Assembly: GCA_903825355.1 (NCBI GenBank)
Contig: CAIKAH010000002.1
Coordinates: 15,359-79,358 of the forward strand
Source: an uncultured bacterium
GTDB lineage: Bacteria > Babelota > Babeliae > Babelales > RVW-14
Reading direction: 5' to 3'
Length of the DNA stretch: 64,000 nt
In this document: positions 10,236 to 62,066 of the stretch, piece after piece
Numbering within the stretch: position 1 is the first letter of the stretch
How the letters are laid out: each line of letters begins with the position of its first letter
Notes under the pieces: generated by a model
Told to the model about the DNA's origin: nothing
Databases searched by the model: none
What the model saw: the letters and a program-made list of their open reading frames with translations, nothing else
Program-made: the position numbers and the translations under genes

Positions 10236-13200
10236 CTAAAGCTCTGATGGGGGAAGAAGGTCTTTTGCTGTCAAATTATATTTATCTTTAATTGAGGTAC
10301 TTGCACCTTTGTCGCGTAAGAGCTTATAGACAGTGGTTTTTTCTTGTTTCCCATAAAATTGCTTTCTAACCGCTACATGTAGTGCGGTTTGTCCATCGCT
10401 ATTCTGTGTATCTATGTTTGCGCCAAGAGTAAGAAGGCATTCGGCAGCCTGAAGGGCGCTGTAATCAACGGCTGTCATGAGTGGGGTTTTTTTAGTAGCT
10501 GGGTCTGGCGTATCAAGTATATTAAGTCCTTGAGTTTCATTTGCCCATGTATGAAGCTGTTCAATCATGTTGGCTGGGTTATTATTAGCAACAATACAGT
10601 TCATTGCCCCATGTATTGAGTAGGTACTACCAGGGGTTGTGATAAGAGCAATAAGCTGTTGAAAATTGCCCTCTCTTATAGGAGTTTCTAGAATTTTTGC
10701 TTTTTCACGTTCTTGTTGTTCTTTTTCTCGTTTGATCCGCTCCTGCTCAGCTTCTTTTTCGGCTTTGATTTCGTCAGAATGTTTAGCACCACGACGCTTG
10801 AGTTCTTCTCTGATAGTGGATAGCTGCTCTATATACAGCTTTTTACTCGCAGCACTTAGTGATGGGCATAGTGTTTTGGGAGCGCTTACTGCTACATCTA
10901 ATGGGGTTTGCAGCTCTATGTTAAGGCTGTTTATGTCAGCACCTTTGTGGTCTAAAAGATAGATGACTTGATCTAATGAACCATTTTGTACAGCGCTATG
11001 CAAAACGTCATTTGCTTGCAAAATGGCAGATTCTTCTTCTGTTTGGCGGATTCTATTGATTCTATGGTTGATAAACAATTGTGCTGTACGAAGGTTGTTG
11101 TTTCTAATAGCAAGGTTAATTGGACTGACTCCGTCAAGGTTTTTAGAATCTATATTGGCAATTCCATTTAAATTATCTAAGACATATTTTGGCGTGGCTA
11201 AAGCTTTGCATAATGCTGCATAATGGAGAAGAGTGTTCCTATTTAAAGAGTTTATATGTCTAGTTGCATTATGAGTCTCAATAAGATTTTTTATTGTTGG
11301 TAGGTGCCCTTGCTCAGTAGCATAACACAGCGCGGGTACTTGCATGGTATTGAGATCATCTACATTGAAGTGATAAAATTCAATAAGATGAGAAGTCAGT
11401 ACTTTGTTGCCATTTGCTGCTGCATAATGCAATAGTGAGTCGCCATTATTGTTTCGGACTGATTTATTAGCGCCTTGCGTGATAAGATAGTCAATAAATT
11501 TAGGTGATGCGTTACAGCAAGCCTCCTGTAATGGTGTTCTTGGGCAACTCAATACAGGTCTGTTTAGCGTATTAACGTGAATATGTTGTTTAAGCTCTTC
11601 TATTGCATAGCGGACAACAGCTAAAGAATTACTTTTTGCAGCAAAATGAAGGAGTGTATTGCCATTCGAGCAAGCTGCGTTTGCAATAGCTCCTCGCATA
11701 TGTAGGTTTTGAACCACAGGAAGGCTTCCACTTTCTAGTGCGCAGCAAAGTAAAGTGTCTCCAGATTTGTTGGGAGTGTTTAGGTTAATAATTTGTCCTA
11801 ATGTATCTAAAACATAGTTGAGTGTAGCTTCAGATCTACTTTGGGCGGCAAAATGTGCGAGGGTATCACCTGATGTTGTTTTAACAGAAGCATCTGCATG
11901 ATATTTACTAGAAAGAAGTTCTATTGTTGCCATGTGTCCATGATGGACGGCGTTGCAGAATGCTGTTTTATTAGATTTGTTACCAGTATTGGGTGAAAAT
12001 CCGTATTTTTCGATAAGAAAACAAACAAGCTGAATGTTGCCCCATCCTGTTGCGTAGAAAAGAGCATTGCTGTGTGTGTGCATATTTGTGTTCATTGCGT
12101 TTGCTCCAGCATTTACTAGGAGCTGGAAAATTTCTGGTGAGCATGATTTGGCTGCAAGGAGTAATGGTGTGTTACCGCTATTGTTAGGAACGTTTAGAGC
12201 AGGCTTTTGGCCTAAGCTTTCCAGCGTATAACGAATAATTTCCTCTGTGTTACTTTGAGCGGCAAAGTGTAGTAGTGTATTGCCTTCACTGTAGTAATCG
12301 ATTTTTGCACCACGATCAATAAGATTTTGTACTAATGATAATGGTCCGTGTTTTAGCGCTGAGCAGAGAATGGTTTTTTCGCTATCATTTGGGGTATTTA
12401 GGTATGCCGCAAATCCGAGTGAATCTAAAACATAATTTAGCGTTGCTTCAGATTTACTTTTTGCTGCGGCTTGTAGTAGCGTATTTCCTTTATCCGTTCG
12501 TATTTTTGTGTTCGCATGGTGGGTAGATATCAATAGTTTTGCTAGTGATAATTGATTATTTTGAATAGCCAAATATAGGGGCGTTCTTCCTTTGAAATCT
12601 CTTGCGTCTTGCGTTAGCCCATAATTTGTAATAAGCGTAGTGATGAGTTTTTGATTGCCCCAGCCTGCAGCGTAGTGAAGGGCAGAGCTGTTAGTCTTGA
12701 CAGTTAGTGCTAGCGGATCGGCTCCTTTTTCAACAAGAAAGTTGAATGCTGCTGGTGAGCAGCTTCGAGCGGCTAGGTGAATGGGCATTTCTCCGTAATT
12801 ATTAGCGTTGTTAATCACTCTACTTTGTCCTAGTGCCTCTAAGGTATAGGCTATAACGTTGAGTGAAGAGTTTTCTACTGCATAGTGAAGCAAAGAATTG
12901 CCGTTTAAGCAGTTAGTGTTTGTGCAAATTTCTCGTGCTATAAGATTTTTGATTACAGGTAGGCTGCCAGATTTTAGTGCAAGGCATAGCAATGTTTCAT
13001 TAGCATAATTTACCATCTGGAGGTTGCTTATTTCTCCGAGGTTGTCTAAGACGTAATTGAGGATCGCTTCAGATTTGCTTTCTGCAGCACAATGAGCAAG
13101 CGTATTACCTTGCTTGTTTTTTATCTTAGTTTCTGCTCCATATTTACTGCAGAGCAGTTCAATGATTGAAACTTCTCCTGATTTGATAGCGTAATGCAAC

Positions 13201-15353
13201 GGTGTTTGGTTGTTTGCATCAAGAGCATTAACTGGTACGTGATAATATTCAATAAGATGATTAACAAGGGTAATGTTATTACTTGATGAGGCGTTGTGAA
13301 GTACGTTAGATTGATTTTGTGTATTTAATTTCATAGGATCTGCGCCCCTATTAACAAGGAGATCAAAGACCTTGGGTGAACACGTATAAGCTGCTAGAAG
13401 TAGAGGGGTATTCCCTTTATTGTTAGATGTGTTTATGCCAGAAGCTTGGGACAAGTCTTCTAGGGCATACCTAATAATTTCTTCATTATTACTTTGGACG
13501 GCAAAGTGTAGTAGGCTCTCCCCGCTCATGCTTATTTTTGTATTCGCACCACGAGCAATAAGATTTTGTACTAATGATAATGGGCCGTATTGTAATGCTA
13601 TGCACAGAGCAGTTGTGCCATTGTTGTCAGGGGTGTTTATGTGTGCAGTAAGCCCTAGCGTGTCTAAAACATAGTTCAGTGTTGCTTCAGATTTGCTTTT
13701 AGCAGCTATATGAAGCAGTGTGCAGCCATTACTATCTGTGTAAGAGGGTTCTGCGTTAGCGTTATGGTCTGCAATTAAGTGTTTTGCTGTAGAGAGATGC
13801 CTTGCAGAAGTAGCAAACCATAAAGGTGTTTGTCCATGGCTGTTAAGGGCATTTACAGAAATATGGTAATGATCGATGAGATGAGAAATAAGCCCTACAT
13901 TACCATGTCCTGCTGCGTAGTGAAGAATTGTTTCTAGTTGGTATGTTTCGGCAAATGGGTTTGCGCCAGCTGTAACTAAGTAGGTTATTAGTTCAGGAGA
14001 ACCGGCTTTTGCAGCAAAATGTAAAGGGTACTCTCCTGCTTGATTAGTAGCGTGTAAGGACGCAGATTGTCCTAGTTTAAGTAGTGCGTATTCAATAATT
14101 TCGATGGATTTACTTTCTACTGCAAAGTGCAGCAGTGAGTTTTCTTGTGAGCATTTGCTTTCAATTTGTGCTCCTCTAGCTACTAAATTTTCTACAAGAG
14201 AAAGTGGCCCGTATTTGAGCGTGAAGCAGAGGGGGTTGATTCCTGCATGCGTAACAGCATCGATTTGCCCAGAAAAGCCTAGTGTGTCTAATACGTAATT
14301 AAGCATATCAGATGAAGTGCTTTGTGAGGCATAATGAAGTAGATTTTTGCCTGTTCTTGTAAGTATATCTTGTCTTGATCCGTAGCTGATGAGTTTCTGA
14401 GCTGTTTCTAGATGGCCATTTTTGATAGCAAAACAGAGAGGGGATTTTTGTTTTTTGTTTAGCTCATTTGGTGAAAAACCACGCATTTGGATAAGGTGGT
14501 CAATAAGTGTTTCATTTCCTCCTGCAGCTGCATAGTGTATGACCGATTTTTCGTTTTTTAAGTTTTTCATTCCTAATAAAGCTCCATAGGTATCTACCAT
14601 GAGTAGAAAGAGATCAATAGAGCCTTTCTGCGCAGCTACATGGAGAGGGGTTTCTCCTCTGCAGTTGGGGACATTTATCTCCGCTCGCAGATCAAGCTCA
14701 TCTAAAATGTATTGTATGACCGCGATAGAGTTGCTTTTGACAGCAAAGTGCAGGAGCGAATTTCCTGTATCGCTTTTTATACTTTTAGATGCTCCATGAT
14801 CGATTAGTAAGCGAATGGTCTCGAGGTTGCCGTATTGAGCCGCAAGTTGTAGGGCAGAGTAGTTGCCATCGTTCACTTTGCGTGCATTAGGATTTGCACC
14901 GTCAATAAGTGCTCGTTCTACGTCAGTTGGATTACGATCGATGATAGCTAAAAATAACTGACTATCAAGGAGTGCGAGTCGTCTGCTGCTTATTTTTATT
15001 GGAGGTTCAATTTGATTTCCTGCTTCATCTGTCAAACCCATAGAAGTGCTTCTGCATTGTGGGCATCGATGGTCCATTTCAGCTGCTCGATACCCCTTGA
15101 AGCATGAATGGCAAAATGGTTTTTTGCAACATGCTGTGAAAGTGATGTTGCCTTGCTCTGCTTCTATTTCATCTGATTCTGCAAGGCAGACAAGGCATTT
15201 ATCATTTGCTATGCGAGGTCTGGTGTTTCGTGTAGAGATTCTATCGTCTTCTTCTCTGTCACTGTCTCGGGCATGCTTGTGTGGTTGACTGGCAGCAAGA
15301 GTACTTAACAGTCCGCACACAATAAAAAAGTTGATAAAAGTGATAAATTTCAT
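10236..15353 (-). CDS. Large secreted RING-like zinc finger plus ankyrin repeat protein (roughly 35-40 ANK repeats)
   Basis: Probable start MKFITFINFFIVCGLLSTLAAS (ORF track starts at 15416); CLVC...CCKKPFCHSC...CPQC; many G-TPLH-AA ankyrin motifs. Confidence 0.9.
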   Translation of the reverse strand: MKFITFINFFIVCGLLSTLAASQPHKHARDSDREEDDRISTRNTRPRIANDKCLVCLAESDEIEAEQGNITFTACCKKPFCHSCFKGYRAAEMDHRCPQCRSTSMGLTDEAGNQIEPPIKISSRRLALLDSQLFLAIIDRNPTDVERALIDGANPNARKVNDGNYSALQLAAQYGNLETIRLLIDHGASKSIKSDTGNSLLHFAVKSNSIAVIQYILDELDLRAEINVPNCRGETPLHVAAQKGSIDLFLLMVDTYGALLGMKNLKNEKSVIHYAAAGGNETLIDHLIQMRGFSPNELNKKQKSPLCFAIKNGHLETAQKLISYGSRQDILTRTGKNLLHYASQSTSSDMLNYVLDTLGFSGQIDAVTHAGINPLCFTLKYGPLSLVENLVARGAQIESKCSQENSLLHFAVESKSIEIIEYALLKLGQSASLHATNQAGEYPLHFAAKAGSPELITYLVTAGANPFAETYQLETILHYAAGHGNVGLISHLIDHYHISVNALNSHGQTPLWFATSARHLSTAKHLIADHNANAEPSYTDSNGCTLLHIAAKSKSEATLNYVLDTLGLTAHINTPDNNGTTALCIALQYGPLSLVQNLIARGANTKISMSGESLLHFAVQSNNEEIIRYALEDLSQASGINTSNNKGNTPLLLAAYTCSPKVFDLLVNRGADPMKLNTQNQSNVLHNASSSNNITLVNHLIEYYHVPVNALDANNQTPLHYAIKSGEVSIIELLCSKYGAETKIKNKQGNTLAHCAAESKSEAILNYVLDNLGEISNLQMVNYANETLLCLALKSGSLPVIKNLIAREICTNTNCLNGNSLLHYAVENSSLNVIAYTLEALGQSRVINNANNYGEMPIHLAARSCSPAAFNFLVEKGADPLALTVKTNSSALHYAAGWGNQKLITTLITNYGLTQDARDFKGRTPLYLAIQNNQLSLAKLLISTHHANTKIRTDKGNTLLQAAAKSKSEATLNYVLDSLGFAAYLNTPNDSEKTILCSALKHGPLSLVQNLIDRGAKIDYYSEGNTLLHFAAQSNTEEIIRYTLESLGQKPALNVPNNSGNTPLLLAAKSCSPEIFQLLVNAGANAMNTNMHTHSNALFYATGWGNIQLVCFLIEKYGFSPNTGNKSNKTAFCNAVHHGHMATIELLSSKYHADASVKTTSGDTLAHFAAQSRSEATLNYVLDTLGQIINLNTPNKSGDTLLCCALESGSLPVVQNLHMRGAIANAACSNGNTLLHFAAKSNSLAVVRYAIEELKQHIHVNTLNRPVLSCPRTPLQEACCNASPKFIDYLITQGANKSVRNNNGDSLLHYAAANGNKVLTSHLIEFYHFNVDDLNTMQVPALCYATEQGHLPTIKNLIETHNATRHINSLNRNTLLHYAALCKALATPKYVLDNLNGIANIDSKNLDGVSPINLAIRNNNLRTAQLFINHRINRIRQTEEESAILQANDVLHSAVQNGSLDQVIYLLDHKGADINSLNIELQTPLDVAVSAPKTLCPSLSAASKKLYIEQLSTIREELKRRGAKHSDEIKAEKEAEQERIKREKEQQEREKAKILETPIREGNFQQLIALITTPGSTYSIHGAMNCIVANNNPANMIEQLHTWANETQGLNILDTPDPATKKTPLMTAVDYSALQAAECLLTLGANIDTQNSDGQTALHVAVRKQFYGKQEKTTVYKLLRDKGASTSIKDKYNLTAKDLLPPSEL

Positions 15354-17137: not shown

Positions 17138-17214
17138 CCGCTCTTTCTTGGCCCGTGGGGCCGGCGTCGTTCAGAACTTGCGTTCTGTATTTCGACTGAG
17201 CTCAGGATGAGCGG
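17138..17214 (+). repeat. Structured palindromic element, long variant with extra CAGAAC/GTTCTG hairpin
   Basis: CCGCTC...GGCCC-gtg-GGGCC...TTCGACTGAGCTCAGGATGAGCGG. Confidence 0.85.
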
Positions 17215-18084: not shown

Positions 18085-18408
18085 GGTAAACCCCTAGGGT
18101 TAAAAAATAGAAAAATAAACCAATAGCGCGCGTGTCGCCGCTATGGCGAAAATATTTTGTGGGAAAAGATAGCTCAGGAGCAATCCCGCTTTGAGAGCGC
18201 TGAGCTTATCGAGCGGTAATAATTACCGTTAAAAAGAGTTTCATGTTGGGCATCCTTCGCGCAACTGATGATTAATTAAGATTATTCAACTCTACCAGTA
18301 TTTTATTCTGCTGGCAACTGGTTGGATGAAAAATCTGGAAAAGCGCGCGTTTATGGGTGTTTTTGATGAAGTAGAAAGTTCTCGCAATGTCTGTATGGCT
18401 TTTATCCC

Positions 18409-18462
18409 CCGCTCATCCTGAGCTTGTCGAAGGACGCTGACCAAAGGGAGGTGGAAAAGCGG
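18409..18462 (-). repeat. Structured palindromic element
   Basis: CCGCTCATCCTGAGCTTGTCGAAGGACG...GTGGAAAAGCGG. Confidence 0.85.
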
Positions 18463-18480
18463 GGAAGAAATTTTTCTAGG

Positions 18481-18531
18481 TCGCTCTTCCACCCCTATCG
18501 GGGCGTGGTTCGACAGGCTCACCATGAGCGA
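18481..18531 (+). repeat. Structured palindromic element, TGGT/ACCA variant, inverted partner of 18409 copy
   Basis: TCGCTCTTCCACCCC-tatc-GGGGCGTGGTTCGACAGGCTCACCATGAGCGA. Confidence 0.85.
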
Positions 18532-23263: not shown

Positions 23264-23920
23264 TTGGGTGTTATGAATCAAAAAATAGATGCGATTTGTT
23301 TCCCCTTCGCTCATCCTGAGCTTGTCGAAAAACAGAACGGTAGTTCTGAACGACGCCCCGTTAGGGGTGGAAGAGCGAAGCAAGCATTTACCTTAGTAGA
23401 AATGCTAGCCGTGATTTTTCTTGCTTCGTTGCTGTTGAGCATGATTTTGCCACTGCTTAATCGCCGGCAAAAGCCAGAAGAGTCATGGGAAACACTCCAT
23501 GAACAGCTAAACCAAATTGCTTCCTTTGCACGGCAAGAAGCGCTTATAAAGCGCAAGGTTTATCGCCTTGTATTTGAGCAGGTGCCAAACCGTGAAGGCA
23601 AAGTGTTTGTTGAGCAAGAGCAGCCCGATCCTGAGCACGCAGAGAAGAAAATGTATATTGCTACTAAGTCAGATTACCAGCTTACTTCTTTAACCCTGAC
23701 GCATGGCAGAACCATACGTGCTGTGTATGTTGGTCGGCAAAATGTGCTTGGGGACCAGGAAAAGCAAGCATACTGTTATGTCATACCCGATGGCATGATG
23801 CAACCAGTGGTGCTGCAGATTGCAAAAAAAGATAAATTTGGTGAAGAAGTTGTATCGTTTCAGTTAAACCCCTTTTTGGGAAGTTTTAATCGCCATGAAG
23901 GTAAGTTTAAACCTGAATAG
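23264..23920 (+). CDS. Minor pseudopilin (GspH-like) with palindromic element in its leader
   Basis: A|FTLVEMLAVI prepilin motif; position in operon after gspG. Confidence 0.8.
   Translation: MGVMNQKIDAICFPFAHPELVEKQNGSSERRPVRGGRAKQAFTLVEMLAVIFLASLLLSMILPLLNRRQKPEESWETLHEQLNQIASFARQEALIKRKVYRLVFEQVPNREGKVFVEQEQPDPEHAEKKMYIATKSDYQLTSLTLTHGRTIRAVYVGRQNVLGDQEKQAYCYVIPDGMMQPVVLQIAKKDKFGEEVVSFQLNPFLGSFNRHEGKFKPE
23305..23380 (-). repeat. Structured palindromic element, long variant, intragenic
   Basis: CTTCGCTC...CTGAGCTTGTCGAA...CAGAAC-ggta-GTTCTG...CCCC-gtta-GGGG...GAGCGAAG. Confidence 0.9.
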
Positions 23921-29293: not shown

Positions 29294-29366
29294 CCGCTCC
29301 TCCTGAGCCTGTCGAAAAACAGAACGTAAGTTCTGAACGATGCCTCCGTAGGAGGTAGAAGAGCGG
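29294..29366 (-). repeat. Structured palindromic element, long variant
   Basis: CCGCTCCTCCTGAGCCTGTCGAA...CAGAAC-gtaa-GTTCTG...CCTCC-gta-GGAGG...GAGCGG. Confidence 0.9.
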
Positions 29367-40990: not shown

Positions 40991-42595
40991 ATGCAAAAAA
41001 TTTGTTTAGATCTGAAAGAGTTCAAAACAATCCGCCAGCAAGGAGGGTTGTACGTTGACAAGACAAAGTATATCTATGAAATTTTTGGTAACGGCTCGTA
41101 TTTTTTTCTTGCTCGTCCCCGTCGTTTTGGTAAATCATTGCTCTGTGCCACGTTAGCAGAATTGTTTGCAGGTAACCGCCATCTTTTTAAAGGCTTGTGG
41201 ATTGATGGCAGTGATTGGGCGTGGAAAAAGCATCCGGTTATTCGCTTGGATATGAGCAAGGCGGCTTCGCCTGTAGCAACACCAGAAGAAGTTCGCGGCT
41301 ATATGGTAGATTTGCTCAACAGCAGCGCAAAGCATCTTGGACTACCTGCAAACACCCTCAGGCAGGGTACACCAATGGCAATGCTGAGTGATTTAATTGC
41401 GCAGGCTAAAGAAGCTTTTGGTGAGCAGGTGGTGGTTATCATCGATGAATACGATAAACCACTGCTTGATGTGATTCAAGATCGCTCTCGCTATACGGCA
41501 ATTCAAGAGGAGTTGAGCGCTTTTTATAGTCAGCTCAAGCCGGCCGAAGAAGATATCAGGTGTGTGTTGATTACGGGCGTATTTAAGTTTACTAAAACCT
41601 CAATATTTTCTGGCCTTAATAATTTGAATGATATCACCTTTAAGCCGAGGGCTGCAGCATTATTGGGGTACACAGAGCAAGAGATTAGAGCGGTTTTTGC
41701 AGACCATCTAGCTGCGGTGGCTGCTGCGTATAAAAAAACGGTCGACGAAATGATGCTTGTCCTTCGTGACAGGTATAACGGGTATTTTTTTGGCGTGAAT
41801 TTGGCAAGTAATGAACTTTCTGCTGGGGTGTATAATCCATATGCTATGAATTATGTTTTTGCAGAGCAGCAGCAGCTAGACCGGTGGTTTAGTTCAGGCT
41901 CGCCGTCAGCCTTAATTAAAAAATTAACCAGCGAACAATTTGAAGCGCTAGAGCCAGCGCGTTTGACAATGTCTTTTTCAGCATTAGAAACATCATGCAG
42001 CCCAGATGATATGACTGCATTGAGTATGTTGTACTATGCTGGGTATCTGACGCTTAAGCACTGCTTTAATAAAAAAGTGACGCTTGGCTTTCCTAATGCA
42101 GAGGTGGCAGGTGCATTTTCAGATGCCTTACTGCCTGCGTTACTGCAAAAAAGTGTTTTTTTTGTTGCGGGGCTTATTGATGAAATACACGACCTGTTTT
42201 GCCAAGAGCGCTTAGATGATTTGAAACAGCTCCTCAATGACGCCCTGGCGCCTGTAGCTTATCCAGTACTAGCACAGCCAGCTGCAAGCGCAGAGCTGCT
42301 GCCAGAGCGCGTGTACCAAATAGCATTTTATTACTTATTTATTGCGAGCAAAATGCCTACAACGTTAGAGGATATGACTAATCGTGGCCGCATTGATATT
42401 GTCGTAGAAGGGCCTCGGTCATTTTATATTTTTGAGCTTAAAATCAATGAGCCAGCGTCAGTAGCGATTGCCCAAATTAAAGAAAAAGAGTACACGGCAA
42501 AGTTTCGGCACAAGGGTAAACAGCTTTATGCCGTTGGCATCTCGATAGACACAGCAAAGCGCTCAGTGGCAGAGCTGATGTGGGAACGTTTTTAG
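40991..42595 (+). CDS. AAA-ATPase-like domain plus PD-(D/E)XK nuclease (PDDEXK_9) protein
   Basis: YVDKT, RPRRFGKSL, IIDEYDKP, NGY.F, YNP; C-terminal GRIDIVV...IFELK. Confidence 0.9.
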   Translation: MQKICLDLKEFKTIRQQGGLYVDKTKYIYEIFGNGSYFFLARPRRFGKSLLCATLAELFAGNRHLFKGLWIDGSDWAWKKHPVIRLDMSKAASPVATPEEVRGYMVDLLNSSAKHLGLPANTLRQGTPMAMLSDLIAQAKEAFGEQVVVIIDEYDKPLLDVIQDRSRYTAIQEELSAFYSQLKPAEEDIRCVLITGVFKFTKTSIFSGLNNLNDITFKPRAAALLGYTEQEIRAVFADHLAAVAAAYKKTVDEMMLVLRDRYNGYFFGVNLASNELSAGVYNPYAMNYVFAEQQQLDRWFSSGSPSALIKKLTSEQFEALEPARLTMSFSALETSCSPDDMTALSMLYYAGYLTLKHCFNKKVTLGFPNAEVAGAFSDALLPALLQKSVFFVAGLIDEIHDLFCQERLDDLKQLLNDALAPVAYPVLAQPAASAELLPERVYQIAFYYLFIASKMPTTLEDMTNRGRIDIVVEGPRSFYIFELKINEPASVAIAQIKEKEYTAKFRHKGKQLYAVGISIDTAKRSVAELMWERF

Positions 42596-42624
42596 CTGTT
42601 CAAAAAATAGAACATAATCGAATG

Positions 42625-42882
42625 TTAGGCGTGTCCAATGCCTGAAGAATCTGGGAGGCGGAAAAAGTCATCCCATACCTCTTCGTAATACTCTTCATAC
42701 TCATCTTCTTCTGCGTAGAAAAAGACTGGGTCATAGCTAGGCTCGTAGATGGCTTCGTACTCGGTGGAATAGGTACAGAGGAGGGGTCCGCTCTTCCACC
42801 CCTGCGGGGCGTGGTTCGACTGGCTCACCAGGAGCGGGAGGGTGCAAATGATCGGATTTTGTAGGTCAGATGGTGTGTTCAT
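42625..42882 (-). CDS. Possible small acidic Tyr/Glu-rich protein containing a palindromic element
   Basis: 85-aa ORF; biased C-terminus YAEEDEYEEYYEEVWDDFF; N-terminal third is the repeat read in-frame. Confidence 0.3.
   Translation of the reverse strand: MNTPSDLQNPIICTLPLLVSQSNHAPQGWKSGPLLCTYSTEYEAIYEPSYDPVFFYAEEDEYEEYYEEVWDDFFRLPDSSGIGHA
42788..42837 (+). repeat. Structured palindromic element, TGGT/ACCA variant
   Basis: CCGCTCTTCCACCCC-tgc-GGGGCGTGGTTCGACTGGCTCACCAGGAGCGG. Confidence 0.9.
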
Positions 42883-42992
42883 AAAGTGCCTAAATCGAGC
42901 GTGCTAATCAGTTCGTGTAAGAGAAATATACCGCCCAATTTGGTTTTATCAATCAAAAAATACAAAATAATTAAATTCATTCAAGTAGAATT

Positions 42993-43048
42993 TATTTTAT
43001 CTGTTCAACCCGGTTTAAAAATACTTTTAGTCGACGATAATCGTTGCC
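42993..43048. repeat. 56-bp direct repeat, copy 1 (duplicate of 3' end of gene 44286..45041)
   Basis: TATTTTATCTGTTCAACCCGGTTTAAAAATACTTTTAGTCGACGATAATCGTTGCC; 2 mismatches to 44287..44342. Confidence 0.9.
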
Positions 43049-43055
43049 CGAGAAC

Positions 43056-44192
43056 CTATAGCGGCTGGGCGCCTTCTTGCAGCAAATCTAGATATTTTTT
43101 ATATACAAATTGTCGGTTGCGCTTGCTTCCTGTTTGTTCAGTTAATATGCCTGCCGCAACAAGCTCTTTAAGTACACTGTTAGCGGTAGGGAATGAGATT
43201 GCTAAGCGCTGAGCGAGTGCCGTAGCTGAAGTGAGGGGGTATTGTGGTAATGTTTCAAATGCATGCAATACGGTTGCGCGGACGTTTTGGGCAAAAAGCT
43301 CTTTCTTGTCCTGCTCAATGCATTGGACTAAGCTTGTAATACGCTGGCTAGCATCTTGTGCTGCTTGCAGCGTCGCATTAAGAAAAAAAGTAATCCACTG
43401 CTCATAATCGCCTTGTTCACGTACCATCATAAGTCGATCGTAATACTCCTGCCGTGCGCGTTTAAAATGGTAGCTGATATAGAGCACTGGGTCAGTAATA
43501 ACCTGTTTCCACTGTAAATAAAAGATAATGAGCAGCCTGCCAATACGGCCATTGCCATCGAGGAATGGGTGGATAGTTTCGAATTGGTAGTGCATAAGGG
43601 CGGCCGCAATTAGTGGATGCTCCGTTGCTTGATGCATATACATTTCAAGATTGCCCATTAATGGCAGAAGCTCTTCTGGAGGGGGCGGTACATAAGCTGC
43701 TTGCTCTAGGCTGCAGCCAGCAAAACCAATCCAATTTTGTGAGCGACGAAATTCGCCAGGCGTTTTATCGCCGCCTCGCACTCCCTGCATTAAAATACTA
43801 TGGAGTTCTTTAATAAGTCTAATCGAAAGTGGAATGGTAGCCAGGCGGCTATTGCCATAGTTAAGGGCGTGAATGTAATTTACTACTTGTTGTACATCGT
43901 TTACATGTGCCGGGACTATACCTTGTTCAAACGAGAGTAAACTTTCTAGCGACGCCTGTGTTCCTTCAATTTGGGAACTAAGTAGAGCTTCCCGTTTGAC
44001 GTACATTGCCAAATACAAGTCTTTATTAGGTAAAACATGCGCTTTTGTATTTAGCTCGTGTAGAATTTTTACGGTTTTATCCAGGAGTTCTTGTAACGAG
44101 GGTGTAATGAAAAGTGATGGAGGAAGGGGCGTTGGGATAAACGCCTTATACCCTTTGAGTTGTGATCGGTAGTGGCCTGAACGGGGAATCAT
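43056..44192 (-). CDS. Fic family protein (N-terminal Fic/DOC, C-terminal HTH)
   Basis: EALLSSQIEGT; HYQFETIHPFLDGNGRIGR canonical Fic motif. Confidence 0.95.
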   Translation of the reverse strand: MIPRSGHYRSQLKGYKAFIPTPLPPSLFITPSLQELLDKTVKILHELNTKAHVLPNKDLYLAMYVKREALLSSQIEGTQASLESLLSFEQGIVPAHVNDVQQVVNYIHALNYGNSRLATIPLSIRLIKELHSILMQGVRGGDKTPGEFRRSQNWIGFAGCSLEQAAYVPPPPEELLPLMGNLEMYMHQATEHPLIAAALMHYQFETIHPFLDGNGRIGRLLIIFYLQWKQVITDPVLYISYHFKRARQEYYDRLMMVREQGDYEQWITFFLNATLQAAQDASQRITSLVQCIEQDKKELFAQNVRATVLHAFETLPQYPLTSATALAQRLAISFPTANSVLKELVAAGILTEQTGSKRNRQFVYKKYLDLLQEGAQPL

Positions 44193-44285
44193 AGTCTGCT
44201 CCTTCGATTTTTAATAAGACTAGCAAAAACTAGTTCTTATTAAAAATATTTTAAATAAAGAGCGGTTTTTATTAAAAATGCTGCC

Positions 44286-45041
44286 CTATTTGATCTGTTC
44301 AACCCGGTTTAAAAATACTTTTAGTCGGCGATAATCGTTGCCAGAGAGCAGGGCAAATCCATGGCTGACTTCTTCCAAAAAGCTGGGTGAGAGGAGATTT
44401 TTGGCCTTAACCGTCCGAATGACGGCGAGGAGCAATTCATCTAGGTTCTGGATCGCGTTAGAAAAGCCGTAGAGTACTTCTAGAAATTGAGCATCAGCAA
44501 AGAATTGTGTAGCGATATCAGTTGATGCTTCGCTAATGAATGCATGAATTTTTGGTGGGTTTGGGGGCACGGCAAAAATGATTTGTTTATTCGCTCTTCT
44601 ACCTCCTTCGGAGGCATCCTTCGACAGGCTCAGGAGGAGCGAATCAGCTGCATCCATATCACCCAGCTCACCAGGAGCGGAGAGTTGCATCGCTCTTCCT
44701 GAGCTTGTCGAAGGACGCGGCTGTAAGCCGTGGAAAAGCGATGCGGGTATATATCCACACGCTTGTACCGTAAACGTTGTTTTTAAAAAAGCAAAAATCT
44801 GTGGCTGCTCGCGTTCAAGTTCTTCTTCCGTTTTCTGGTAAGCGAACGGCGTGCGCGATGGATCCATGGAGCCGGTTTGAATACCGGTAACAAGACCAAG
44901 CACTTGTAGCTCTTTGTCTTGGATGCTAACCAATGAGCCAAAGGTAGGAAATTGTTTCCATTCCCAGCATTGAGCAGTGTAGTGGTCAAGCGAAGATTCG
45001 ATTACTTCAGCAAAAAAGGGATGTTTGTTTTGGCTGGTCAT
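44286..45041 (-). CDS. HAS-barrel-like conserved protein with in-frame palindromic insertion
   Basis: AEVIESS, PTFGSLV, EEELEREQPQIFAFLKT, PPNPPKIH resemble bacterial HAS-barrel proteins (recalled, not searched); about 50 aa internal segment is repeat-derived. Confidence 0.7.
   Translation of the reverse strand: MTSQNKHPFFAEVIESSLDHYTAQCWEWKQFPTFGSLVSIQDKELQVLGLVTGIQTGSMDPSRTPFAYQKTEEELEREQPQIFAFLKTTFTVQACGYIPASLFHGLQPRPSTSSGRAMQLSAPGELGDMDAADSLLLSLSKDASEGGRRANKQIIFAVPPNPPKIHAFISEASTDIATQFFADAQFLEVLYGFSNAIQNLDELLLAVIRTVKAKNLLSPSFLEEVSHGFALLSGNDYRRLKVFLNRVEQIK
44287..44342. repeat. 56-bp direct repeat, copy 2 (the 3' end of the HAS-barrel-like gene)
   Basis: TATTTGATCTGTTCAACCCGGTTTAAAAATACTTTTAGTCGGCGATAATCGTTGCC. 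Confidence 0.9.
44590..44643 (+). repeat. Structured palindromic element, intragenic
   Basis: TTCGCTCTTCTACCTCC-ttc-GGAGGCATCCTTCGACAGGCTCAGGAGGAGCGAA. Confidence 0.9.
44687..44744 (-). repeat. Structured palindromic element, intragenic, inverted partner of 44590 copy; partial third copy at 44664-44680
   Basis: GCATCGCTCTTCCTGAGCTTGTCGAAGGACGCGGCT-gta-AGCCGTGGAAAAGCGATGC. Confidence 0.9.
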
Positions 45042-45702
45042 GGGGCTCTACAAAGTTTTTAATAAAGGTTGTTCGATGAATGGCACAGGGTCCGTGCTCT
45101 TTGAGCGCTGCAATATGTTCGGCAGTACCGTACCCTTTGTTTTGCATAAAGTTATAGGCTGGAAATTGTGCTGAAAGCTCTTCCATCAATCGGTCGCGTG
45201 TTACTTTTGCAACAATTGAGGCCGCTGCAATAGAAGGGGAGAGCGATTCGCCATAGTTAAAATAATGGCATTCTAGGCCTGTAGGCTTTTCTTCAGCAGC
45301 AATTTTGAGCGGCATGGCATCTACCAGGACATATTTAAGCAGTGCGGGGTCGCATGGTAATGTTTGCATCAGATTCAGGTAGGCATGCTTCATGGTGAGT
45401 AGCGTTGCTTGGTAAATATTTATCGTATCAATGGTCTTGTGATCAGCAACTGCAGTTGTCCATGCGCAGTGCTCAGTAATCCAGGAAAATGCTTTTTCGC
45501 GCTGTGCTTTGGTCATTATTTTTGAGTCTTTGAGCATTGGCTGGTTGGTGTATAACGGCAGTATGACTGCACCTACGACTACCGGGCCGGCAAGGCACCC
45601 ACGGCCAGCTTCATCAATACCCATAGCACGTTTTTGCGTGGCCCAGGCTTGCGTTTCAAAGTATAATTTTTTTGGCGATTCTACGCTTCTATTCATATTC
45701 AT
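45007..45702 (-). CDS. rnhB: Ribonuclease HII
   Basis: GIDEAGRGCLAGPVV, LKDSK, VLVDA, SIAAASIVAKVTRD, NKGYGT; start reset to ATG 45702 because the ORF-track extension to 45795 is repeat and GIY-YIG sequence. Confidence 0.95.
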   Translation of the reverse strand: MNMNRSVESPKKLYFETQAWATQKRAMGIDEAGRGCLAGPVVVGAVILPLYTNQPMLKDSKIMTKAQREKAFSWITEHCAWTTAVADHKTIDTINIYQATLLTMKHAYLNLMQTLPCDPALLKYVLVDAMPLKIAAEEKPTGLECHYFNYGESLSPSIAAASIVAKVTRDRLMEELSAQFPAYNFMQNKGYGTAEHIAALKEHGPCAIHRTTFIKNFVEPHDQPKQTSLFC

Positions 45703-45726
45703 GTAAGCAACTAGTTTGTTAAGTCC

Positions 45727-45776
45727 CCGCTCACCCTGAGCTTGTCGAAGGGCGCCCCGTAGGGGTGGAAGAGCGG
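45727..45776 (-). repeat. Structured palindromic element overlapping GIY-YIG 3' end and providing its TGA
   Basis: CCGCTCACCCTGAGCTTGTCGAAGGGCGCCCC-gta-GGGGTGGAAGAGCGG. Confidence 0.95.
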
Positions 45777-46060
45777 GTATTATAAGTTTTTGCAAATGTA
45801 CTAATATCTTGCCATTTACCTTCTATAAGAGCACGTTTTTTGCTTCTACTCCATCCCTTTATTTGTCTTTCTGCTTGAAAAGCTTCATTGCGTGAAGGCA
45901 TAAGTTGCTGAAAAACTAATTGAACAGGCCGTCTACTTGCAGTCCAACAGTACTGAAAAGCCACGACATTATGCTCAGCAATTCTTTTACGCATATCATC
46001 AGTGTGCCCTACATAAAAAGAGCCATCGCTGCACTCAAGAATATAAACTGAAAATTTCAT
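45731..46060 (-). CDS. Stand-alone GIY-YIG nuclease (UPF0213-like)
   Basis: VYILECSDGSFYVGHT..MRKRIAEHN, RRPVQLV, EAFQAERQIKGWSRSKKRAL. Confidence 0.95.
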   Translation of the reverse strand: MKFSVYILECSDGSFYVGHTDDMRKRIAEHNVVAFQYCWTASRRPVQLVFQQLMPSRNEAFQAERQIKGWSRSKKRALIEGKWQDISTFAKTYNTRSSTPTGRPSTSSG

Positions 46061-46082
46061 TATAATTCATCGATAACAGGAG

Positions 46083-46132
46083 CCGCTCTTCCACCGCTTC
46101 GCGGCGCCCTTCGACAGGCTCAGGGTGAGCGG
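46083..46132 (+). repeat. Structured palindromic element upstream of GIY-YIG gene
   Basis: CCGCTCTTCCACCGC-ttc-GCGGCGCCCTTCGACAGGCTCAGGGTGAGCGG. Confidence 0.95.
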
Positions 46133-46394
46133 GGATGCTAATAACAAGAGGGTTATAATCTTCTAATTGAGCAGTAAGTAAAATTAATATTTAATCAAAG
46201 TTAGTCCTTTGTGCATGTTATCACACAATGATTTTTTTCTCATCTAAAAGGATTAAGACATTTTTTTGCCTCCATGTCACAAAAAATTTTATGATACATG
46301 TAGTAATTTTTTCTGGCTTTTGAAATGACGTTTGATTATATTATGAAAAAGTTATGGCAATGTTTGAATTTTTGGCAAAGCAGGAAGGGATTTC

Positions 46395-47066
46395 ATGTCC
46401 TCAACAGAACTTCGCGTAAAAGAGTTGCTTCGTGAAAGAGGCTGGACTACAAAAGTCTTAGCAGAAAAGACTGGCCTGTCTGAGAGCTACCTGACACACA
46501 TCAAAAATGGTACACGCCGGTGGAACGAGGATGCGCTTAAAAAATTGGCAACAGCTTTTGGGTCACATCCGGTTGATTTGTTTGCACAACGCAAAACACG
46601 TACTGATAATGTAGAAGCAAGCGTTAAAATGCCTGATAACATTAACGTTGATCTACAGCTTAAAATTGTGCCAGTAATGGGTGATATTACAACAAATCCA
46701 TCTCCGTACAACAACCAGTTAATGCAAGTAACCACTGGCCATAAAGATGTATTTGTTCCGGTTGCAAATAGCACCGATGATTCTATGTTTTGTTTACATG
46801 TAGAAAACAATTTGATGGCGCCGGCATTTGTAAAAGGTGATTACCTCATTATTTCTCCTGCCACCTGGGCACGTTCGGGCGATATTGCTGCGGTTGAATA
46901 TGGCAATGAGAATCCAATCAAAGCCATTATGCAAGTAACCTATATGGAAGAGTTTGTGGTACTTGAAGCACCAAACCATAAAAATCCACCTGTTGCATTG
47001 GTTCGTGGTAAAGACCACTTCCGTGTTATTGGCAAGGTAATTTATCGCTATCAACGCATGTTATAA
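46395..47066 (+). CDS. XRE-family HTH transcriptional regulator with S24-like C-terminal domain
   Basis: LLRERGWTTKVLAEKTGLSESYLTHIKNG HTH; FCLHVENNLMAP..VKGDYLII; VVLEAPN; VIGKVI. Confidence 0.85.
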   Translation: MSSTELRVKELLRERGWTTKVLAEKTGLSESYLTHIKNGTRRWNEDALKKLATAFGSHPVDLFAQRKTRTDNVEASVKMPDNINVDLQLKIVPVMGDITTNPSPYNNQLMQVTTGHKDVFVPVANSTDDSMFCLHVENNLMAPAFVKGDYLIISPATWARSGDIAAVEYGNENPIKAIMQVTYMEEFVVLEAPNHKNPPVALVRGKDHFRVIGKVIYRYQRML

Positions 47067-57865: not shown

Positions 57866-59057
57866 CTATGCCTTCAGTGCGTCATATTCGGCACCGCCAT
57901 AGATGCTAGCATCAACAGGTGGAAGGCCTAAGCGAGCACGGTTTTCTGCTACCATCGCATTTATGTCAGTAATGGCAGCGGCAGGTACTTGTGCTGATGG
58001 TGCAATGCTAAAATCAGTAAGTCCTAAGTTCCTGAGGATTAAGAGCTCAGTGAGAGTAGGATTGTTGCTGAGGTCAAGAGTAGTCAGTTTTGGGATATCT
58101 GTTGCCCAAAGGCGAGTTAGAGAAGGGCAGTTGCTCAAGTCAAGGAAAACAAGGTCTTGGTTGGTTGAGGCACAAAGCTGAATGAGTGTAGGAGAAGTGA
58201 TAGTAAGTCTACAATCTGCGGGAACATTTCTTATTTTTGGCAGCCCATGAGGAAGATTGCACAGCACTAAATCAATGATTAGTTGAGTTAATTCATTAGC
58301 GTTTGGTAGTTGTTGCAGGGTTGTGAAGTCTATAATTTCGTTGCGAAGCCCCAAAAAATCTGTTGTTAAAAAATTTGCAAAGATCGCTTTTACATTTACA
58401 TAAGGATCAAGGTTTTCATCTGTAAGATTATGATTTTGCTGCCACCATACAAAACGGTAAGCCATTTTGGTGAGTTCTTCTCCATCTGTAAGCTCAACAA
58501 AAGCAGCGCGAGCCTCGGCTAGTGTTTTGCCAGTAAGGGCGCGTTTTGCTGCATACAAGGCATCTCTAGTGGGTTGTTGCATAGAAATAATTTAGACGAT
58601 TAATCTGACATTTAAGCTCATCCTTAATTTCTTGATCAGCACCTGCTGCGATAGCGTTTCCTAGCCGCTTGCAGCGGTAAGCAAGGAGTTTTTTTTGACT
58701 GTCAAATGGAGTAGTGATGCGACCAGTTGTTTCTCGTGCGCGGAGCATAGAAGCGATATTTTTGCTGGTAGTAGGGCGAGAGAAAGATGCTGTTGCAGGA
58801 GCACTAATTGACGCTACTTCATCGTTACTTTCATCATCATTAATCGTGGGGACAACAGAAGCCATTTGAGATGCTGCAGCGCTGGAAGAAGCAGCCTCGG
58901 GTTCAACACGAGGTCGTTGCATAGGGCATGCTGGCTGTGCGTCGTAATCAGTATCTGATTCATGTTTTTCTTCTGCACACTCGCGTTTAGCAGCCTGGCA
59001 TAGGGGAGAGAGCGCAAGGCCAGCGGCCAGGGAAAAAAACATTAGTTTTAGTTTCAT
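57866..59057 (-). pseudogene. Secreted LRR paralog split by a +1 frameshift (ORFs 58566..59057 and 57866..58582)
   Basis: One extra base at about 58591-58593 relative to paralog 59842..60795; removing it restores QINRLIISMQQPTRDAL. Confidence 0.8.
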
Positions 59058-59110
59058 AATAATATCGCTTTGTGTTTCTAGGATATTTTTTGGTTATGTT
59101 ATTTGTGCTG

Positions 59111-59821
59111 TTAGCTAATGCAGCAGTGGCAATTAGCAGGAGCTATTTCTCTCACAGCTTCCTCATCTTCTGCGTCATCAGCACCGGCCCCGGCATGTCC
59201 TGCATCATCAACAGAAGTAAGGCCTGGGTTTTGGAAGGCAAAAAGCCTTGTGAGCGCAGGGCAGTTGCTCAGGTTAAGGGAAGTCAATCCTGGTTCGTCA
59301 ATGACAACAAAATCTGTGAGACTATTAGAAGAAATAATAAGATTACAATGTTGGGGTAGATTTGTTATCTCTAACGTCGTTTGACTAGAGTTGCATAGTA
59401 CTAAATCAATCAGCAGCTGAATTAATTCATGCGCATTTTGTAGCATTCGCACATGGTAAAAATTCAATGTGCAGCTATTTCTATAACTTAATACTTTACT
59501 AAATCCTGCACATGTTTCTTGTAAATTTACAGTGGGGTCAAGATTTTTTTCTCTTGGATGTTGGAGCCACCAAGCATAACGGTAGGCCATTTTGGTTAAT
59601 TCGTCTTCATTTGTGAGCTTAATGAAAGCATCTTGTGCATCATTAAGAAGCATTGCTTTAGGTAGCGCAAGAATTGCTCTATTTAAAGTGTTTTTAGTAG
59701 CTAATAAGCGGCTGGAAATGCTTGCAGCACTAGAAGCAGCAGCCGTATGGCACAGCGGGGAGAGAGCAAGGCCAGCGGCGAGGGTAAGAATCGTTAATTG
59801 TAGTTTCATAATAATCGCCAT
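59111..59821 (-). CDS. Secreted LRR paralog, shortened form, C-terminal CCIS
   Basis: Shared leader MKLQL.ILTLAAGLALSPLC; ELTKMAYRYAWW; LTSLNLSNCPALTRL. Confidence 0.85.
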   Translation of the reverse strand: MAIIMKLQLTILTLAAGLALSPLCHTAAASSAASISSRLLATKNTLNRAILALPKAMLLNDAQDAFIKLTNEDELTKMAYRYAWWLQHPREKNLDPTVNLQETCAGFSKVLSYRNSCTLNFYHVRMLQNAHELIQLLIDLVLCNSSQTTLEITNLPQHCNLIISSNSLTDFVVIDEPGLTSLNLSNCPALTRLFAFQNPGLTSVDDAGHAGAGADDAEDEEAVREIAPANCHCCIS

Positions 59822-59841
59822 TTGATTTTCTAGTTCACTTT

Positions 59842-60795
59842 TTATTCATCATCTTCTGCGTCGTCATCAGCACCGGCAGCAGCATGTCCTGCATCAGTAA
59901 GCGGAAGGGCTAAGCGAGCACGGTTTGCTTCTACTATCGCGTTTATATGAGCAATCTCGGCGGTATATATTCTTGTTCTTGGTGCAATCCTAAAATCAGT
60001 AAGAGCTGGGTTGTTGTCGACATTAAGAAAAGTGAGCGCATGATTGTTGCTGAGGTCAAGGGCAGTAAGGCTTTGGTTGTTAAAGGCAGAAAGATAAGTG
60101 AGGGCAGGGCAGTTGCTGAGATCAAGGGTAGTAAGGCCTGGGTTTTGGTTGGCCAAAAGAATAGTGAGGTGGGCAGAAGTAATAGTAATTTGATGAGAAT
60201 CTACTGGTATGCTTGCCAATCTTAGGAGCTTCTGGTCAGCCTTGCATAGGACTAAATCAATGAGCAGCTGAGTTAATTGATTAGCCTCTGATAGCCCATG
60301 AAAGGGAGCGAAGTTGAGTTTGTTCCTCTCGGTAAATTCTGTAAACACTTCGCTTAAATTTACAACAGGATCAAGATTTTCTTCTGCTGGGTTTTGGAGC
60401 CACCAAGCATAACGGTAAGCCATTTTGATCAATTCACCTGCATCTGAAAGCTCCACAAAGATGCCTTTGGCTGCATCGAGCGTTTGTCCAGAGAGAGCGT
60501 CTTGTGCTGCATCCAATGCATCTCTAGTGGGTTGTTGTATAGCAAATATTAGACGATTAATCTGCGCTTTGAGCCCATCAATAAATTTTTGGTCAACACC
60601 TGCTGTTCTTATAGCGTCTCCTAGCTCTTTGCAGTATCTGGCAAGTAGGCTTTGGTTGCTATCAGATGAAGAAGCTGCATATGCATCTTCGGATACATCA
60701 CTTGAAAAGGTTGCAGCGCTAGAAGCAGCAGCCTGGCACAGCGGAGAGAGAGCAAGGCCAGCGGCCAAGCTAAGAATCATTAATTGTAATTTCAT
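59842..60795 (-). CDS. Secreted LRR paralog, intact full architecture
   Basis: Signal peptide; CKELGDAI..QINRL; ELIKMAYRYAWW..ENLDP; 21-aa LRRs; ENRARL.LP tail. Confidence 0.9.
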   Translation of the reverse strand: MKLQLMILSLAAGLALSPLCQAAASSAATFSSDVSEDAYAASSSDSNQSLLARYCKELGDAIRTAGVDQKFIDGLKAQINRLIFAIQQPTRDALDAAQDALSGQTLDAAKGIFVELSDAGELIKMAYRYAWWLQNPAEENLDPVVNLSEVFTEFTERNKLNFAPFHGLSEANQLTQLLIDLVLCKADQKLLRLASIPVDSHQITITSAHLTILLANQNPGLTTLDLSNCPALTYLSAFNNQSLTALDLSNNHALTFLNVDNNPALTDFRIAPRTRIYTAEIAHINAIVEANRARLALPLTDAGHAAAGADDDAEDDE

Positions 60796-60827
60796 AATAA
60801 TCTCGATGTGTGTTGTTAGTTCACTTT

Positions 60828-62066
60828 TTATTCAATATGTTCTGCGGCATCAGCAGTCGGCAGTCCAAGGCGAGCACGGTTTTCGGCAACCATGTCGTTA
60901 ATTAAGGCAATAAGTCCTGCAGATACTTGCGTTGCGCCAATCTTGAAATTAGTAAGCAATGGGTTGTAAAAGGCATAAAGGTATTTGAGGGCAGGATTGT
61001 TGCTCAGGTTAAGTGCAGCAAGCTCTGAGTTGTTGCCGACCCGAAGCTCCCTTAGTCTAGCATTGTTAGTCACATCAAGTGCCATAAGCCCTGGGTTGTC
61101 GTATGCACGAAGGACAGTAAGGGCAGGATTATGGCTTAGGTCAAGAGCAGAAAGCCTTGGGTTTTTGCAAACATTAAGAAAAATGAGAGCAGGGCAGTTG
61201 CTGAGATCAAGGTCAGTAAGGACAGGGTTGCAGGAGGCGAGGAGGTGAGTGAGAGCAGGGCAGTTGCTTAGGTCAAGGGTAGTAAGGCCTGGGCTACTGG
61301 AGGCTTTAAGGTAAGTGAGGCTGCTGGATGTAATTTTAATGTTACTTTCCGGGGGTAAATTAATTAACGTTAATCTTTGTTGTACTGGGTTGCAGAGTAC
61401 TAAGTCAATCAGAAGTTGTGCGAGTTTGTGTGCATTTTCTAATCCATGAAGCGGGGTGAAGTTTATGGTAAAATCATTGAATTCATTGAATTTCTCAAGC
61501 ATGTCTTGCATGTCTATGGCAGGATCAAGATTTTCTGCTCCAGGATTGCGCTGGTACCAGGCAAAGCGGTAGGCCATTTTGGTGAGTTCGTCATCATCTG
61601 GCAGCCTTTCAAAGTCATAACGCGCAGCAGCAACTGTTGTGCCAGCAAGCACAGTATTTGCATCGTTCAAGGCAGTTTTGAATGGTGCTTGTTTACCGTC
61701 GATCAGTACAGCAATCTGCCGTTTGATCTCATCAATAGTTTTTTGATCAGCGTCTGATCTTAAAGCATCACCAAGCTGCTTGCAGCGGTGAGCAAAAAGG
61801 TTTGTTGTGGAACTATAGTGGCAGCGAGCAGGGAGAGTACCGGTTTGGTTTCTGAGAGCTAAGTGCCGAAAGAGATTGTGGGGTGGTTTGAGAAATGTTC
61901 TGAATGCGGCAGAGGCGGTATTGTTACTATAAGCTGCTGCTTGTGTGGTATCTGTTCGTTGGCGCGTAGCTCCTTTGCAGGCCGATGCAATAGCAGGACT
62001 GACTGTTCGGATAAGCTCTAAGTACTTCTGTGTATTTCTAATAGAATATTTCGCCGTGGTATTCTG
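60828..62066 (-). CDS. LRR paralog with the longest LRR tract; start codon unresolved
   Basis: Frame open from 62066 to stop at 60828; first ATG/GTG/TTG only at 61670, but family motif HRCKQLGDAL..EIKRQI lies upstream at about 61700-61800. Confidence 0.7.
   Translation of the reverse strand, partial: QNTTAKYSIRNTQKYLELIRTVSPAIASACKGATRQRTDTTQAAAYSNNTASAAFRTFLKPPHNLFRHLALRNQTGTLPARCHYSSTTNLFAHRCKQLGDALRSDADQKTIDEIKRQIAVLIDGKQAPFKTALNDANTVLAGTTVAAARYDFERLPDDDELTKMAYRFAWYQRNPGAENLDPAIDMQDMLEKFNEFNDFTINFTPLHGLENAHKLAQLLIDLVLCNPVQQRLTLINLPPESNIKITSSSLTYLKASSSPGLTTLDLSNCPALTHLLASCNPVLTDLDLSNCPALIFLNVCKNPRLSALDLSHNPALTVLRAYDNPGLMALDVTNNARLRELRVGNNSELAALNLSNNPALKYLYAFYNPLLTNFKIGATQVSAGLIALINDMVAENRARLGLPTADAAEHIE

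Follow-up and report, generated by a model that had tools for sequence, protein, structure and literature searches.

Background

In-frame palindromic elements have been a textbook oddity of Rickettsia for 25 years, since 2000. They are designated RPE-1 to RPE-10 (Ogata et al. 2000 Science 290:347, here after the summary in PMC10969869). Short imperfect palindromes in alternating orientation are also described as REP, BIME and REPIN sequences, with RAYT transposases as their partners (Nunvar 2010; Ton-Hoang 2012; as cited in PMC11893778). A further system is that of SsnA, a GIY-YIG enzyme of 94 aa which cuts single-stranded DNA beside a hairpin repeat that frames its own gene (Chenal et al. 2025, Nat Commun 16:2388, PMC11893778); in-frame genic copies of the repeat are not described in that paper.

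Here we report a repeat insert in a conserved gene of an uncultured bacterium of the Dependentiae (TM6), and compare it with these systems. The analysis starts from a contig stretch of 64,000 nt, hereafter the window, and extends to the whole genome from which it comes (G000) and to related genomes. Like the RPEs, the repeats studied here are dispersed palindromic sequences of 100-150 bp that occur again and again in frame in unrelated housekeeping genes of an obligate intracellular bacterium; they are absent from the orthologues, sit at positions compatible with the protein fold and, judging from the sequence, would be read as extra peptide. Unlike the RPEs, they occur in another phylum, are built from modular units of 52 nt with a covarying three-stem fold, enter genes also as single units of about 50 nt, are linked to small GIY-YIG genes, have a core that is spread over many phyla, and lie in a loop that is repeatedly occupied in different lineages. 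Given the different unit architecture, sequence homology to the RPE families is unlikely. The parallel with Rickettsia that an earlier note on this DNA had drawn is borne out by 15 conserved genes with in-frame units genome-wide, as a likeness in behaviour and not as membership of one family, because the element is unrelated in sequence as far as the unit architecture tells. RPE-like behaviour is thus met in an unrelated phylum of protist parasites and with a different repeat family, which seems to be linked with small GIY-YIG nucleases of an uncharacterised branch. In the literature searched, we found no description of this repeat family or of its apparent GIY-YIG partner, and neither in-frame palindromic inserts in Dependentiae nor the repeated occupation of one loop.

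Results

A composite repeat insert in the HAS-barrel gene

The features of the locus are collected in Table 1. By reading the sequence directly at 44591-44741, we find two full units in inverted orientation together with a partial one, just as the earlier note had claimed, and the open reading frame of 251 aa runs through the whole block without stop and without frameshift. The frame includes the peptide ASLFHGLQPRPSTSSGRAMQLSAPGELGDMDAADSLLLSLSKDASEGGRRAN between the conserved blocks ACGY and IIFAVPPNPPKIH, where the note had placed about 50 additional residues; the comparison with the closest orthologues gives a net 50 codons. These residues sit between the strand ending ACGYIPAS and the strand QIIFAVPP, and the sequences on either side of the 150-nt insert are ...CCCGCA and ...CAAATCATT.

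Table 1. Coordinates of the HAS-barrel gene, its insert and related repeat features, as positions in the window
Feature	Position	Strand	Description
Host gene	44286..45041	-	251-aa HAS-barrel protein; Pfam PF09378, E 3.8e-7
Composite repeat insert	44591..44741		151 nt; net gain 150 nt = 50 codons; about residues 102-151
Unit 1, A type	44591..44642	- (reverse, R)	52 nt; nhmmer 5e-13; encodes DSLLLSLSKDASEGGRRAN
Spacer	44643-44689		47 nt between units 1 and 2; contains the truncated third unit
Truncated third unit	~44664-44680		terminal 16-17 nt of a B-type unit; AGCTCACCAGGAGCGG; GCTCACCAGGAGCGG
Unit 2, A type	44690..44741	+ (forward, F)	52 nt; nhmmer 7e-13; read antisense by the gene; encodes SLFHGLQPRPSTSSGRA
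Canonical tight F-R doublet (example)	18408..18530		A unit, 19-nt spacer, B unit; intergenic
Single B-type unit	42788..42837	-	intergenic, downstream of the fic cassette
Neighbouring GIY-YIG cassette	45724..46135	-	F unit 45724-45776; GIY-YIG gene 45731-46060 (-); R unit 46083-46135

Both full units have close relatives elsewhere in the genome, unit 1 being 92% identical to the unit at C45:8779 and unit 2 being 87% identical to that at C18:34274, and the truncated third unit is recognised by comparison with a full B unit at C10:42468. For unit 1, the folding (F) strand is the sense strand of the HAS-barrel gene. A search for inverted repeats returns arms at 44591-44649 and 44683-44741 with 75% complementarity, and a 26-nt core matches four times in the window, while 0.00 matches are expected from shuffles. 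The G+C content is 58% in the insert and 44% in the rest of the gene. At the level of the mRNA, the predicted fold of the insert reaches -82 kcal/mol compared with -50 ± 4 kcal/mol for shuffles, and a hairpin of such predicted stability could be an obstacle to translation or a target for RNase III. Digestion of the predicted product with trypsin would yield peptides specific to the insert, AMQLSAPGELGDMDAADSLLLSLSK among them.

The host gene, its orthologues and the predicted structure

The HAS-barrel gene has 1259 homologues, nearly all of them in Dependentiae/Babeliales and nearly all of about 200 aa, and is present in 40 of 41 related genomes. The best Foldseek matches of the protein are the N-terminal parts of HerA translocases. 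At every locus examined in Babeliales, rnhB directly precedes and overlaps the gene. When the window genome is compared with its sister lineage L004, amino-acid identity in the flanks of the insert is 0.90 and identity at third codon positions only 0.57, which shows that the gene is under purifying selection.

A gap at the insert position was expected in an alignment with orthologues, and this is what the comparison gives: in 54 of 59 orthologues, a loop of 4-16 residues separates Y97 from the IIF strand, compared with 56 in the window protein, the overall range being 4-59. The closest orthologues, P0003 and P0004 (201-202 aa), are 91-94% identical to the window protein outside the gap and have no insert; the empty site at the DNA level, compared by means of L004 (the locus of P0004), reads GGATATGTTTTACCGGCGAGTTCTGAAATCATC. 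None of the orthologues lacking the DNA repeat has the peptide of the insert, in agreement with the claim that the peptide derives from the repeat. The insert-bearing gene is found in four independently assembled strains with 96-100% amino-acid identity, one of which corresponds to a GenBank protein. Since it is seen in four separate assemblies, the insert is not an assembly artefact, and it is fixed in the species as far as these four strains represent it.

The structure predicted by AlphaFold2 from the alignment of 59 sequences has a mean pLDDT of 84, with values above 90 on either side of the insert and of 46-61 for residues 101-150, and shows no secondary structure in the insert. The insert is accordingly predicted to be a disordered surface loop, as had been anticipated from the sequence.

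The repeat family

The nhmmer census over the whole 1.39-Mb genome detects about 145 units at 91 loci. The unit is a GC-rich module of 50-55 nt with the form CCGCTC-NYY-TGAGCYTGTCGAA-RRN-(variable hairpin)-GGAAGAGCGG, which folds into three stems: an outer stem, a 3-bp stem closing an invariant 13-nt loop, and the variable hairpin. The 3-bp stem covaries, with UA 65, CG 26 and GC 8 at one pair and CG about 68 and GC 27 at the other two, its pairs being paired in 91-98%, and the outermost pairs of the terminal (outer) stem covary too. Two stem types are distinguished, namely A (NCC...GGN) and B (NGG...CCN). Among the tight F-R doublets, which have spacers of 14-27 nt, 15 of 18 combine an A with a B unit where 37% would be expected (p = 8e-5), while the R-F pairs, to which the insert in the HAS-barrel gene belongs, show random combinations of A and B. 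The two arrangements also differ in location, in that genes contain none of the 22 tight F-R doublets, which are all intergenic, but 7 of the 20 R-F pairs (Fisher p = 0.003). Peptides diagnostic for the units include FDKLR and PELVEG.

Outside this genome, the exact core is found in Chloroflexota, Sphingomonadales, Burkholderiales, Acidobacteriota, Elusimicrobia and others; Novosphingobium and Sphingomonas strains are among its carriers. Its distribution over 40 relatives is uneven, the core being abundant in some genera of the family, absent from the congener G001, and nearly absent from the other families of the order. The Rfam scan of 42000-47000 (E <= 1) gives no family for the unit and no ribozyme or intron family. 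As a minor observation, in some units an additional hairpin module, CAGAACGNNAGTTCTGAAC, separates the stem of the 13-nt loop from the variable hairpin (17163-17196, 23324-23357 and 29311-29344); the same module is present in the UppP and kinase inserts of the congener G002, and the window genome is without it at those sites.

In-frame copies in other genes

Inside open reading frames of at least 150 codons, which cover 88% of the genome, we find 15 of the 91 repeat loci, a strong depletion (p about 1e-54). All 15 genic loci keep the frame and avoid stops, and single units of 36-57 nt are found in frame in genes as well. The hosts, confirmed by Pfam or by congener homologues, are the HAS-barrel protein, a NagZ-NamZ fusion, iPGM, PGK, UppP, HisRS, MutL, a TrxB-thioredoxin fusion, DapF, a sensor histidine kinase, TrmD, a glycosyltransferase, an acyl-CoA ligase, and others. 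Congener alignments show clean gaps at the positions of the genic inserts, with empty sites in L004, G003 and G001, and several inserts lie between domains when placed against the Pfam domain boundaries. In MutL (G000:C45:7040-7223) and in the TrxB-thioredoxin fusion (C48:10755-10923), the 'spacer' of the R-F pair may be a native linker, with the units flanking a segment of the host protein, as seen by eye in the congener alignment.

We considered whether the units are pre-adapted to be translatable and reject this, the fraction of stop-free frames being 0.67 in the units and 0.62 in shuffles. With no noticeable excess of stop-free frames in the units, selection after insertion, and not design, is the likely filter. 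The 15 genes with filled and empty alleles among congeners offer a way to ask how repeats enter and leave coding sequence, whether they are kept at the DNA level and how much protein sequence they add.

Association with small GIY-YIG genes

About 700 bp away in the window lies a cassette in which a GIY-YIG gene is flanked by arms of 92% complementarity. Its product is a single-domain protein of 109 aa (PF01541 at residues 3-75, E 8e-15), whose nearest solved relatives are the UPF0213 structures 1zg2 and 1ywl (BH0048 and EF2693; E 7e-13 and 2.5e-11) and which is matched by no model of NCBIfam. All four small GIY-YIG genes in the genome adjoin units, three of them framed in the order F-gene-R and the remaining one with a detected unit on one side. 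By analogy, the small GIY-YIG protein is a candidate for the enzyme partner of the repeat family.

The Ssn/SRM system resembles the present one in having a single-domain GIY-YIG gene of about 100 aa framed by inverted copies of a hairpin repeat that is multicopy over the genome, and both systems are enriched in symbionts. They differ in that Ssn is defined by the cd10448 clade, whereas the nearest solved relatives here are UPF0213 proteins. The cassettes may thus be called Ssn-like in architecture, membership in Ssn being not established. Identity of the repeat itself with NTS/SRM (NTS/dRS3) is rejected, as the core ATTCCCGCG-N3-GCGGGAAT has 0 matches in the window at <=3 mismatches and the unit consensus differs.

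With REP sequences and REPINs, the family shares doublets in alternating orientation (here A+B) and a putative enzyme gene framed by inverted units. However, REPs are extragenic by definition, while 16% of the loci here are read in frame inside genes. A RAYT partner is also rejected, the only Y1_Tnp match in the genome being a broken fragment on a contig without units; this sole match to PF01797, at G000:C7:992-1210, covers only model positions 2-74 of 121 and is interrupted by an internal stop. In terms of MITEs, terminal inverted repeats are present, and the only gene-bearing relative is the GIY-YIG cassette, which does not encode a known transposase. No target-site duplication or clear target motif is recognised at five pairs of filled and empty alleles. 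At several of the empty sites, GC-rich CCNGC-like strings are seen by eye at the position of the unit end, five sites being too few for a test.

Repeat inserts inflate and confuse the gene annotation of Dependentiae, for example by a spurious N-terminal extension of rnhB. Here the rnhB reading frame (45007-45795) has such an extension, read from a repeat unit (ALPPLRGALRQAQGERG), and the GIY-YIG frame 45731-46060 ends within the very unit that extends rnhB (...TPTGRPSTSSG and stop).

The loop in other lineages

In the congener G002 (locus L001, protein P0002), this loop of the HAS-barrel protein is likewise occupied by an R-F doublet. The arms of that doublet match those of the insert in the window at only 69-74% identity, and other units of the window genome at up to 93%; the spacers of the two inserts resemble each other no more than expected by chance (p = 0.26), G002 lacks the truncated third unit, and the two inserts have no peptide in common beyond what the unit consensus imposes. 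Orthology of the two inserts is thus unsupported by the similarity of arms or spacers, and the six co-occupied sites described below weigh the other way. A codon tree built from lexA, rnhB and the HAS-barrel gene has the topology ((G000,L004)94,G002)79, that is, L004 with its empty site is sister to the window genome with 94% bootstrap and G002 is placed outside; a protein tree of the four closest orthologues gives no resolution.

More distant Dependentiae also have GC-rich repeat-like inserts in this loop (P0018 and P0075), and P0037 has probably a decayed one. The G+C content of the inserts is 0.50-0.51 at L188 (301-996) and L189 (301-948) and 0.40 at L190 (301-1038), compared with 0.29-0.31 for the genes. 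On the sequences, the loop appears to carry unrelated-looking repeat inserts in the congener and in at least two, probably three, other lineages of Dependentiae. The insert at L189 (CCCTGAGGAGCCCAACCGGCGTCTCGAAGGG) resembles a further instance of the CCTGAG...TCGAAGG frame, a hairpin being placed in the loop.

Over the genic sites of the window genome, G002 has units at the same place in 6 of the 14 sites examined, namely in NagZ-NamZ, UppP, the glycosyltransferase, the histidine kinase, TrmD and the HAS-barrel protein, while G001 and G003 have none at the sites occupied in G000. In UppP, one arm of the two inserts is about 93% identical by eye, and from the sequences the inserts are clearly orthologous. 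At some of the shared sites, conservation of the units far exceeds that of neutral sites: the third codon positions of UppP are identical at 0.79 in the insert and at 0.41 in the flanks. An inert passenger alone fails to explain this. At the kinase and TrmD sites, the units of G000 and G002 are in opposite orientation.

Discussion

On the whole, the explanation we hold to be quite probable is that selfish repeat DNA landed in a permissive surface loop of a conserved gene and, to judge from the open frame, is now read through as protein. Two full inverted units and a truncated third one would have been inserted between the ACGYIPAS strand and the IIFAVPP strand of the HAS-barrel protein, and with a block that is a multiple of three and free of stops in the frame used, the gene would have stayed intact, its product carrying about 50 extra, presumably disordered, residues. 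Insertion would not be directed at genes; copies that break genes would be lost, and only those in frame in loops and inter-domain linkers would survive. The family is probably propagated or maintained by way of a single-stranded hairpin form by GIY-YIG nucleases of the UPF0213 type, as the analogy with Ssn/SRM suggests.

This explanation is compatible with more than one history of the loop. The tree, the arms and the occurrence in several lineages favour independent arrivals in a permissive loop. It is also a serious possibility, which we would put somewhat short of an even chance, that the ancestor shared by G000 and G002 had an insert in the loop already, that L004 and P0003 lost the palindrome precisely, and that the arms were overwritten by gene conversion from other units or flipped by hairpin-mediated inversion, so that the insert would be old and self-renewing and not a recent arrival. 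The co-occupation of 6 of 14 sites by G002, with none in G001 and G003, is far above the overlap of random insertions and speaks for such an ancestral insert, as do the orthologous UppP inserts, recognisable although synonymous sites are near saturation, and the kinase and TrmD units, whose opposite orientation at one site is what in-place inversion would give. Against it stand the 94% bootstrap for an empty-site sister of G000, the arms from different subfamilies and the unrelated spacers of the two inserts, their junctions, which appear to be offset by about two codons, and the other repeat families in the same loop of distant lineages, which show that independent hits occur. Weighing all of this, we rate the two histories, independent arrival and ancestral insert with remodelling, as roughly equal, and either of them implies that loops are revisited or remodelled.

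Other alternatives concern what the insert does in the gene. That it has been co-opted, the peptide loop or the mRNA or DNA hairpin being functional (for instance in regulation, as a site bound by a nuclease or another protein, or as a loop for protein interactions) and kept by selection, would agree with the fixation in four strains, with the very stable predicted hairpin and with genic units that stay recognisable and foldable over a divergence that has brought synonymous sites close to saturation; we nevertheless consider co-option distinctly improbable, as no insert is present in the sister lineage or in 54 of 59 orthologues, disorder is predicted for the peptide, the peptides of the G000 and G002 inserts are alike only as far as the unit consensus dictates, and amino-acid changes within the species are about twice as fast in the insert (3 in 51 residues) as in the flanks (6 in 200). 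The insert is also a near-perfect long hairpin whose ends are adjacent in the fold, as might be expected if the 150 nt were removed after transcription or translation in the manner of an intron or an intein, leaving a mature protein without the peptide; removal at the RNA level had been raised in the earlier note. Such removal is very hard to reconcile with the lack of any ribozyme or intron family in the Rfam scan and of intein motifs in the sequence, nor would splicing explain why the frame is kept and stops are avoided in all 15 genic copies, or why single units as short as 36-57 nt are in frame. Equally remote in our view is the idea that in this lineage the gene is silent or decaying, a pseudogene whose open frame is a coincidence, for which nothing specific can be named beyond the host being an uncultured parasite with a reduced genome, where gene decay is common; strong purifying selection acts on the flanks, four strains and the independently occupied allele of G002 have kept the frame intact, and the gene is kept in 40 of 41 relatives, overlapping rnhB in an operon-like arrangement.

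Starting again from selfish repeat DNA in a permissive loop, a bolder form of the explanation can be formulated, unlikely in our estimate, in which the genic units would be a live, self-renewing system, a GIY-YIG nuclease of the UPF0213 type acting on the single-stranded hairpin and driving repeated insertion, precise excision, inversion and overwriting at permissive loops. It would explain the different units and orientations at identical sites in related species, the clean empty site of the sister lineage and the units that remain intact while synonymous sites saturate. If true, it would mean that a reduced genome has its protein loops continually remodelled by a mechanism linked to a nuclease.

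Other features of the window

Next to the insert-bearing gene, the final ~60 nt of the HAS-barrel gene are present twice in direct orientation, at 42992-43051 and 44286-44345, with fic (43056-44192) between the two copies, and the downstream copy translates to SGNDYRRLKVFLNRVEQIK followed by a stop. At the position of fic, G002 has a different cargo gene (437 aa) with a diverged copy of the same C-terminus. The 3' end of the HAS-barrel gene looks like an integration hot spot.

Diverged arrays of tandem protein repeats are typical of effector-like proteins in amoeba-associated bacteria. In the window, diverged tandem protein repeats are found at 11197-14768 with a period of about 207/618 nt, and a period of 66 nt (22 aa, leucine-rich-repeat-like) is found at 58007-61340 in several paralogous genes.
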